From IMG/VR virus record IMGVR_UViG_2537561945_000005, positions 1 through 50,588 of that record: a stretch of 50,588 bases of DNA; one strand, given 5' to 3'. Both the position numbers and the translations under genes were made by a program. How positions within the stretch are numbered: the first letter of the stretch is position 1; every line of letters starts with the position of its first letter. The DNA comes from a virus. Its lineage: Duplodnaviria; Heunggongvirae; Uroviricota; Caudoviricetes. Under the pieces are notes generated by a model that had not been told where the DNA came from, did no database searches, and saw only the letters and a program-made list of their open reading frames with translations. Positions 38,927 through 39,927 of this stretch are shown here, piece after piece.

Positions 38927-39700
38927 TCAAAAATTAGGTGAGTAACGGACCGGGGACATAGCTCCTTTTTTTCTTAATTCATCTGGTATTTTTTTTCCAA
39001 GATAAAGATTTGCTATTTCAGGTGGGGCTTCTCGACCTTCAAAACCATAGCGAGAACTTTGTGTTGCCTCAAAGTCCGGATCCTCGTCCCAGTATTTCAT
39101 CGTAGGGAAATTTTCACGTGTTGATTTGAGCCATTTATCAGCAATGAAAACCCCTCGAACGATCCCCCTTACAGTAGCAAGAATGACTTCTGCTTGGCTG
39201 GCGCGAGAGACATTAATGCGCCAGCTAAATCGAACCGCATCATAAAGCTCTGAATCCTTTGCACTTCTGTTAACGGAAATCATTAATGCTTTATGATGAA
39301 ATGTTATGGTTTCGGGTTGATATGTTGCTATCAACTCTTTGACATGCGCGGCGCCGAATTCATTGCTGCCAGCACCATTCATGATATTCGTTAACCCAGG
39401 GTAGGCATCAATAAGTGCTGCTTCAACTTCGTACGCCGTCTTTTCATCAGTCATTCCGTGTCGATGGATGACATGGATAACCTCAAGTCCTGCTAACCTT
39501 ATTTCTCTAATTTGCTTTAGCTTGTTGCTCAGTAACTCGTCATCATCAGTCGCTGCCACTTCACCGCGCATATGGGCAAATACGCGGTTACCTTTGCCTT
39601 TCCCTACATAGAAGGTGCTTCCGTCCCTCGGATCAATCAATCGGTATACATACCAGCCAAGGTGTTCAATTACTCCAGAAGGAAACTCAGTAATATCCAT
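38927..39700 (-). CDS. GIY-YIG-domain protein with uncharacterised C-terminal domain (cargo)
   Basis: N-terminal motif [30 protein letters not shown] resembles the GIY-YIG nuclease fold; ~180-aa C-terminus unrecognised; opposite strand to tail genes; ORF continues to 39751. Confidence 0.6.
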
Positions 39701-39927
39701 TTTGCAATATCTATGAATTATTTGTGAGACGTATATTAATGAACATTGCAAGGGCTCACAACCAGTAGTGTTGAGAAAACCATCGGGGAAATGAGGCTAA
39801 GCCTTTGAATTTACAAGTACAAAAAAGATACTTTTCCTCATAATGTGAATTAATTTTATGTTTCGTTTGATGATTGGACCGGTCTCGAAAACCGGAGTAG
39901 GGGCAACTCTACCGGGGGGGCAAATCC

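Follow-up and report, generated by a model that had tools for sequence, protein, structure and literature searches.

The window analyzed here, a stretch of 50,588 nucleotides, contains a prophage whose tail module is followed by a gene on the opposite strand, with an insertion sequence lying a short distance upstream of that gene. The locus raises the question of what this gene encodes, how it came to occupy its position, and whether the nearby insertion bears on its expression. A sequence-only reading had proposed a nuclease-domain cargo protein that might serve as a defense or anti-plasmid factor.

Assignment of the gene to the PD-T4-3/CMoRE family

The gene and its two domains are located as follows.

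38927..39700, minus strand: CMoRE/PD-T4-3 gene, 257 aa plus stop, identical to RefSeq WP_000355484.1
[quoted passage not shown]
38930..39343, minus strand: C-terminal 5hmC/5ghmC-sensing domain (residues ~120-257; role from PMC12923530, boundaries approximate)

The open reading frame runs on the minus strand to 38927, stop codon included, and offers the start codon ATG 39700 (257 aa) and an in-frame upstream TTG 39751 (274 aa). Because the PADLOC and PHROG profiles and both crystallized homologs align from residue 1, and because the same 774-nt coding sequence is annotated in RefSeq, the true start is, judging from these alignments, ATG 39700 rather than TTG 39751. The RefSeq protein, annotated in E. 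coli BE311, carries the label "LEM-3-like GIY-YIG domain-containing protein", and the window is 100% identical to BE311, and likewise to strains F41 and K99S, across the 5.8 kb compared.

Residues 1-256 of the protein aligned with positions 1-255 of the 256-position PADLOC profile PDLC04031 (PD-T4-3), a full-length match (E = 2.4e-140), and PHROG 5356 was likewise matched across the whole protein (E ~1e-140); an NCBIfam search yielded zero matches. When solved structures were searched, the CMoRE protein of E. coli O157:H7 (PDB 9U75/9U8D) was recovered with E = 3.7e-172 and a gapless alignment in which 253 of the 257 residues are identical (98.4%), as was CMoRE of E. coli APEC O1 (WP_000353910.1; PDB 9U7U/9U7Z) with E = 1.1e-150. 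The gene at 38927-39700 is thus very probably an intact member of the PD-T4-3/CMoRE family, which cuts phage DNA carrying 5hmC or 5ghmC; no feature of the sequence speaks against this assignment. The suggestion that nuclease-domain cargo at this position acts in defense agrees with the full-length match to a family shown experimentally to act against T-even phages (PMC12923530).

A functional selection against T4 by Vassallo et al. 2022 had yielded PD-T4-3, which was listed there as "COG3680 (GIY-YIG)", validated, and gave zero escape plaques; a second genome context yielded an identical copy in the same selection (PMC9519451). The ECOR68 PD-T4-3 sequence or its accession was not found in the supplements of that paper. 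Crystal structures and a mechanism for CMoRE were reported by Liu et al. (Nat Commun, January 2026; PMC12923530), who found that T2, T4, and T6 plate ~5 orders of magnitude less well on cells with the O157:H7 protein, and that T4(C), with unmodified cytosine, escapes whereas the non-glucosylated T4(hmC) does not. In the same work, purified CMoRE bound and cut only DNA with 5hmC or glucosyl-5hmC and ignored unmodified and 5mC DNA; the cut site is CN11/N9G, with 2-nt 3' overhangs, little sequence specificity, and strict modification dependence (PMC12923530). A metagenomic PD-T4-3 homolog of 48% identity is also modification-dependent and cuts Mom-modified Mu DNA as well. Defense against T-even phages and cleavage restricted to 5hmC/5ghmC DNA are accordingly known from homologs that are 98% identical to the window protein, from the more divergent CMoRE of APEC O1 (E = 1.1e-150), and from a protein with 48% identity to the original PD-T4-3. 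PD-T4-3/CMoRE is an already described system that is common in E. coli, with its mechanism and structure solved, and it holds no new biology. The original evidence presented here consists of sequence identity, the full set of named functional residues, and the genomic context; we infer the activity and expression of the gene in the strain carrying the window from the published homolog.

Two other functions were considered for the protein. It could be a selfish GIY-YIG homing endonuclease that spreads itself rather than defending its host, a reading to which a weak match to PHROG 314, "homing endonuclease" (E = 0.0021), and the annotation of full-length jumbo-phage homologs (38-45% identity) as homing nucleases would point. 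However, the PHROG 5356 and PD-T4-3 profiles match over the full length at E ~1e-140, the gene stands free at the end of a prophage in every locus inspected, with no intron, intein, or conserved target gene, and the published homolog cuts with little sequence specificity and strict dependence on modification, all of which make homing extremely unlikely.

Alternatively, the protein could be a nuclease directed against plasmids or mobile elements in general, or a toxin that acts by abortive infection. A nuclease in a cargo slot of a mobile element is compatible with such a role, and CMoRE carrying the 4A loop mutation is toxic and cleaves ordinary DNA (PMC12923530). Nevertheless, the wild-type enzyme neither binds nor cuts unmodified or 5mC DNA, host DNA stays intact in CMoRE cells during infection, and such cells grow normally at an MOI above 1, which indicates direct immunity (PMC12923530). 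In an independent study, deletion of PD-T4-3 from its native host NILS69 caused sensitivity to Tevenvirinae and left plasmid maintenance unchanged, and the acidic loop is intact (DDDE) in the window protein. We find this explanation scarcely credible, and the earlier idea of an anti-plasmid factor is not upheld.

Domains and functional residues

Residues were read from the translation and compared with those named in PMC12923530, the text of which gives no residue numbers for the catalytic Arg and Glu of the GIY-YIG site. The initial observation of a GIY-YIG-like N terminus encoded on the opposite strand was confirmed by Pfam PF22945 (LEM-3_GIY-YIG), which covers residues 28-110 with E = 2.1e-14 and 54.2 bits against a cutoff of 27, well above chance. 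In the same search, the generic GIY-YIG profile PF01541 fell under its cutoff (13.9 versus 22.6), and no T5orf172 profile was present among the Pfam matches at E up to 1, such that the comparison with that fold once suggested for this protein finds no footing.

The motif reads G15-W-Y17-V-Y19 ... F-Y31-V-G33, and the GIYxY-YIG tyrosines Y17, Y19, and Y31 together with R39 are all present, as are the interface residues R80, V92, and L96 and the ligand-contact residue Y127. The beta1-beta2 loop region is identical to that of 9U75. An acidic autoinhibitory loop is formed by D52-D53-D54-E55, as in APEC O1, and is DDDD in O157:H7. Overall, the window protein differs from the O157:H7 enzyme by T51A, E55D, Q168K, and N196H (window residue first), all four conservative; T51 and E55 are the sole differences in the nuclease domain, and Q168K and N196H the sole differences in the C-terminal domain, which aligns gaplessly with the crystallized proteins. 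At residues 55 and 196 the window protein has the residue of the active APEC O1 protein.

Crystallography of the 98.4%-identical homolog revealed an N-terminal GIY-YIG fold nearest to that of UvrC, in which the motif has one tyrosine more (GIYxY-YIG) and four acidic residues form a lid that blocks cutting of ordinary DNA (PMC12923530). The GIY-YIG fold anticipated for the window protein would accordingly be that seen in the crystal structures of a protein with 98% identity. The remainder of the protein had been described as an unrecognized domain of ~180 aa. Indeed, this domain has no Pfam match, but it is smaller, with ~135-140 aa (roughly residues 120-257), and its role is now known to be that of a modification sensor: in the crystallized protein, 5hm-dCTP is bound by the C-terminal domain at Y127, whose main-chain oxygen contacts the 5-hydroxyl of 5hmC, and the authors detected no sequence or structural homolog of the domain (PMC12923530). 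The same study established that CMoRE is a tetramer.

The mechanism we propose is that established for the 98.4%-identical protein. The C-terminal domain would bind DNA with 5-hydroxymethylcytosine or glucosyl-5hmC, and the protein, acting as a tetramer arranged as a dimer of dimers, would recognize two modified cytosines ~21 bp apart (CN11/N9G). The N-terminal GIY-YIG domain would then make a double-strand cut with 2-nt 3' overhangs in the presence of Mg2+ or Mn2+, and the acidic loop above the active site would spare unmodified host DNA. A lysogen would be expected to resist T2, T4, T6, and their relatives through direct degradation of the incoming genome and not through abortive infection.

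Prophage context and the slot behind the tail module

The boundaries of the host element and the neighbors of the gene within it are as follows.

1369-1444: thrW (tRNA-Thr CGT), adjoined by the integrase
1399-1450: attL, inside and just past thrW
37523-38437, plus strand: tail-fiber ORF, 304 aa, with a glycine-rich C-terminal domain (Pfam Gly_rich_2)
38437-38850, plus strand: 137-aa ORF in the chaperone position, following the tail-fiber ORF, without a Pfam match
38869-38907, plus strand: stable hairpin between the convergent 137-aa ORF and the CMoRE gene (-26.4 kcal/mol, z = -3.3)
41874..42617, plus strand: AraC-family regulator (Pfam HTH_AraC, HTH_18), without a PADLOC match
43107..43158, plus strand: attR, where the 3' part of thrW recurs as a 52-nt direct repeat (98% identity)

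Together, thrW and the repeat bound a 41.7-kb prophage (attL-attR spacing of 41708 bp). By the RefSeq annotation of BE311, its early region is lambda-type (exo, bet, gam, kil, cIII, ral, sieB, N, cI, cro-like, cII, O, P, ren, nin, Q), followed by lysis genes, an HK97-type head, and a contractile tail of the Mu/SfV/e14 type that ends in ymfQ and the tail fiber. The host element is a thrW-integrated lambdoid prophage with an e14/SfV-type tail, and CMoRE is its last phage gene; as the first gene past the tail module, on the opposite strand, and the last before the thrW attR, it occupies the att-proximal position originally ascribed to it. It had also been placed after a tail-fiber chaperone. The position is right, since the ORF at 38437-38850 follows the fiber gene, but the identity is not: this ORF, examined as a TfaP-type chaperone, has neither similarity to e14 TfaP nor a Pfam match. 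The tail-fiber gene is an uninterrupted 304-aa ORF with an StfP-like N terminus, which RefSeq splits into a "stfP" pseudogene and a glycine-rich protein.

CMoRE stands as a single gene, with the convergent tail-module ORF on one side and a tRNA remnant and IS on the other, and it is also solitary at the real serU gene of strain PM4. No methyltransferase is adjacent to it among the ORFs or in the RefSeq annotation, and the closest ones, at ~13477-14004 and 44766-45974, are both part of other modules. The gene thus joins a modification sensor, a role taken from PMC12923530, to a nuclease without a cognate methyltransferase, as is expected for a type IV restriction system.

In other genomes, the same protein follows tail fiber-tfa-pinE modules, the crystallized O157:H7 allele WP_000355475.1 included, which lies in the order tail fiber-pinE-CMoRE-AraC. 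The slot behind the tail-fiber/pinE module of K-12 e14 holds mcrA (7347-8180 of the compared locus L006), against CMoRE at 38927-39700 of the window. Because mcrA occupies it in e14, the post-tail slot is a variable defense hotspot and CMoRE is not a conserved structural accessory, in keeping with the cargo hotspot surmised from the sequence. Two unrelated type IV restriction enzymes, mcrA and CMoRE, alternate at the same prophage position.

The AraC-family regulator, which is followed by an IS3-type integrase-core fragment (42659-42868), was examined as a possible partner or regulator of the nuclease. This is unlikely: DNA captured from the serU flank separates the two genes, and CMoRE occurs at the real serU without AraC. 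The AraC block, which encodes an AT-rich regulator, accompanies the CMoRE block in 542 genomes and is absent where CMoRE sits at the real serU. The regulator and the IS3-type fragment belong to the thrW-island side, and the regulator is probably not part of the defense gene.

The RefSeq annotation places a number of other morons related to lysogenic conversion or defense in this prophage, namely the antirestriction gene ral, the superinfection-exclusion gene sieB, genes for a phage N6-adenine methyltransferase and a porin, and the serum-survival gene iss/bor, at ~6838-7833, 13477-14004, 15886-16983, and 18758-19051 (coordinates converted from the BE311 record). A 299-aa ORF on the minus strand (8601-9500), directly downstream of the cI-type repressor gene and hence at the position of lambda rexAB, is annotated as hypothetical and was matched by neither Pfam nor PADLOC; we regard it as a candidate for a second defense or exclusion gene of the prophage. 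Just beyond attR, in the region 43316-48739, a second, P4-like integrase (43316-44524) is followed by an overlapping three-gene cassette for an N6 DNA methyltransferase, an AAA ATPase, and a 362-aa protein, and the cassette (44766-48739) looks like an uncharacterized restriction-like defense cassette.

44766-45974: type II-like N6 DNA methyltransferase (PADLOC MTase_II, full length)
45967-47673: ORC/CDC6-like AAA ATPase
47651-48739: 362-aa protein, without a Pfam or PADLOC match

A fossil serU attachment site beside the gene

On its upstream side, the gene is accompanied by remnants of a second attachment site.

39876..39927, plus strand: 3' fragment of serU (tRNA-Ser CGA), left part, spanning the anticodon stem through the T-arm; former attR of a phage that integrated at serU
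41267..41568, plus strand: right part of the serU fragment (to 41290) and a copy of the 277-bp serU-zinT spacer; host DNA captured with the old attR

The two parts, 39876-39927 and 41267-41290, make up the 3' 66 nt of serU, as determined by comparison with the real serU in LF82. The left fragment shows 96% identity both with annotated tRNA-Ser genes and with the attP regions of lambdoid phages of the serU type; ARAGORN called no tRNA at 39876-39927. The 277-bp spacer matches 5405 of the 5426 E. coli genomes at ~97% and in LF82 directly follows the real tRNA-Ser gene on its 3' side. The fossil attR is 175 bp from the CMoRE gene, which is therefore att-proximal in this second sense as well.

In five genomes (PM4, Q5, GF130, MB15, and RMDEC332), CMoRE lies directly beside zinT at the real serU, and in PM4, the one of the five inspected, a lambda-like prophage (gpJ-lom-stf-tfa) ends with it. 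Because the gene is accompanied by the serU fossil and by the 277 bp of host DNA captured with it, the simplest reading is that CMoRE originated as attR-proximal cargo of a serU-integrating lambdoid phage of the siphovirus type. On the simplest reading, too, the gene, its attR, and the host flank would then have been carried off in an imprecise excision and joined by recombination to thrW prophages, whose tail is of a different type.

IS186 and the upstream region

The region upstream of the gene comprises two further features.

39928..41266, plus strand: complete IS186, 1339 bp, ends uncertain by 1 nt, inverted-repeat ends located
39701..39875, minus strand: conserved, AT-rich 175-bp upstream region, presumed native promoter (from alignment)

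The insertion first noticed roughly 230 bp upstream of the gene proved to be a complete IS186 (IS4 family), separated by 227 bp from the CMoRE ATG and starting 228 nt from it, in which every base equals that of K-12 IS186A. Its assignment follows from this identity, the terminal inverted repeats, a 10-11 bp target duplication, GGGCAAATCC(C), and the target motif. The transposase coding sequence (39983-41095, plus strand) is divergent from CMoRE. The IS-free allele of SCU-118 has the empty site CCGGGGGGGCAAATCCCCC, which fits the IS186 target GGGG(N6/N7)CCCC, a highly specific target at which either orientation is used (PMC5009759).

The junction is common to BE311, F41, and K99S only (3 of 5426 genomes). 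Strains G1/2, G6/7, and G8 match past the same junction (partial match), and in G6/7, the one of these three inspected (locus L005; NZ_CP060061.1, 4660-6005; compared at window positions 39914-39927), we found an independent IS186/IS421 insertion that lies in the opposite orientation, is flanked by an 11-bp duplication, and has a frameshifted transposase. Judged from these sites, the T-arm remnant of the fossil serU is a hot spot for IS186. Because the target specificity of IS186 fully explains its position, the element is best read as a recent, lineage-specific insertion that would have been drawn to the GGGG(N6)CCCC of the fossil tRNA-Ser T-arm and that is not part of the system.

Two IS-free loci share the identical 175-bp region upstream of the gene, and its last ~70 nt before the ATG are invariant in five of the five loci compared, O157:H7 included; across the whole aligned stretch, these five loci have a mean column identity of 97%. 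A scan with sigma-70 and terminator consensus sequences identified no strong sigma-70 site and nothing on the CMoRE strand. By eye, a weak TTGTGA-17 nt-TAATAT can be discerned ~40 nt before the ATG, and the ribosome-binding site is weak in appearance. The native promoter is presumed to lie within 39701-39875. Because the 175-bp stretch ended at the attachment site in the ancestral arrangement, the control region of CMoRE is most likely intact despite IS186.

It is nevertheless conceivable that the protein is CMoRE and that IS186 has materially changed its expression, either by silencing the gene through loss of an upstream element or by raising its expression from an outward promoter borne by the IS. 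An IS located 227 bp upstream could matter because native promoter strength varies among alleles and the APEC O1 allele gave weak defense under its own promoter (PMC12923530), and because data from NILS69 hint at native repression of PD-T4-3; moreover, the same site was struck twice independently. Against such an effect, the 175 bp next to the ATG are intact with their last ~70 nt invariant, the ancestral serU region ends at the attachment site, leaving nothing beyond it as an original regulatory element, and transcription of the transposase leads away from CMoRE. The target specificity of IS186 predicts recurrence in both orientations, and insertions are present here in only 3 + 3 of the 5426 genomes. 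We consider a material change of expression unlikely.

The two independent insertions at one site also make it conceivable that the G-run and C-run of the fossil T-arm form a recurrent landing pad at which insertion of IS186 in either orientation tunes or switches CMoRE, with lineages toggling between T-even resistance and the cost of a potentially self-toxic nuclease. We regard this switch as very unlikely and retain the reading of IS186 as a recent insertion outside the system.

Distribution and significance

The CMoRE gene is present in 838 of 5426 complete E. coli genomes (~15%) at a nucleotide identity of at least 95%. A megablast search of the gene against 50,697 deposited phage genomes recovered the tRNA-Ser remnant only and no copy of the gene, and tblastn against deposited phage genomes recovered only homologs below 46% identity, mostly in jumbo phages. 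The "phage" carriers of CMoRE are so far known as prophages only. Full-length homologs (38-45% identity, 97-99% coverage) are encoded by jumbo phages (ON287376, MK994515, MF285618, JN627160, and MN642089) of Serratia, Pectobacterium, Pantoea, Pseudomonas (OBP), and Klebsiella (N1M2), where they are annotated as homing endonuclease or hypothetical; these proteins may be weapons against co-infecting phages with hypermodified DNA.

Lysogens with CMoRE, including the porcine lineage of BE311, F41, and K99S, are expected to resist T4-like therapeutic phages with hydroxymethylated or glucosylated cytosine. The practical value of the assignment lies in annotation, as the RefSeq name is still only "LEM-3-like GIY-YIG domain-containing protein". 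The genomic context adds a small piece of natural history, that of an att-proximal cargo gene probably moved between prophage families.

Comparison with known systems

The closest known system is CMoRE of O157:H7 (WP_000355475.1; 9U75, 9U8D), of the same family as PD-T4-3 of ECOR68. The two proteins share the same length, motif, acidic loop, interface residues, and Y127, and the two genes occupy the same slot: at thrW, a tail-fiber module is followed by CMoRE on the opposite strand, a serU remnant, and an AraC regulator. In contrast to O157:H7, the serU remnant of the window has GG and not TT in the T-loop, IS186 is present upstream, and the tail module is without the pinE invertible segment. 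CMoRE of APEC O1 shares the DDDE loop and N196 with the window protein and is more divergent, with many substitutions in the C-terminal domain.

McrA (EcoKMcrA, from K-12 e14) is an unrelated protein that has no sequence similarity to CMoRE, and its gene is codirectional with the tail genes. Its nuclease is of the HNH type, its sensor differs from that of CMoRE, and its targets are 5mC/5hmC. Systems of the PvuRts1I/AbaSI and GmrSD types follow the same logic as CMoRE, in that a sensor for hypermodified cytosine is combined with a nuclease, without a cognate methyltransferase, against T-even targets, whereas their nuclease and sensor folds differ from those of CMoRE. Neither family matched the window protein in PADLOC or Pfam; a comparison of CMoRE with PvuRts1I is given in PMC12923530. 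Relative to the GIY-YIG domain of UvrC and LEM-3 (Ankle1), CMoRE has an extra tyrosine (GIYxY-YIG), a 15-residue acidic lid, and a fused modification sensor, and it is not a repair enzyme.
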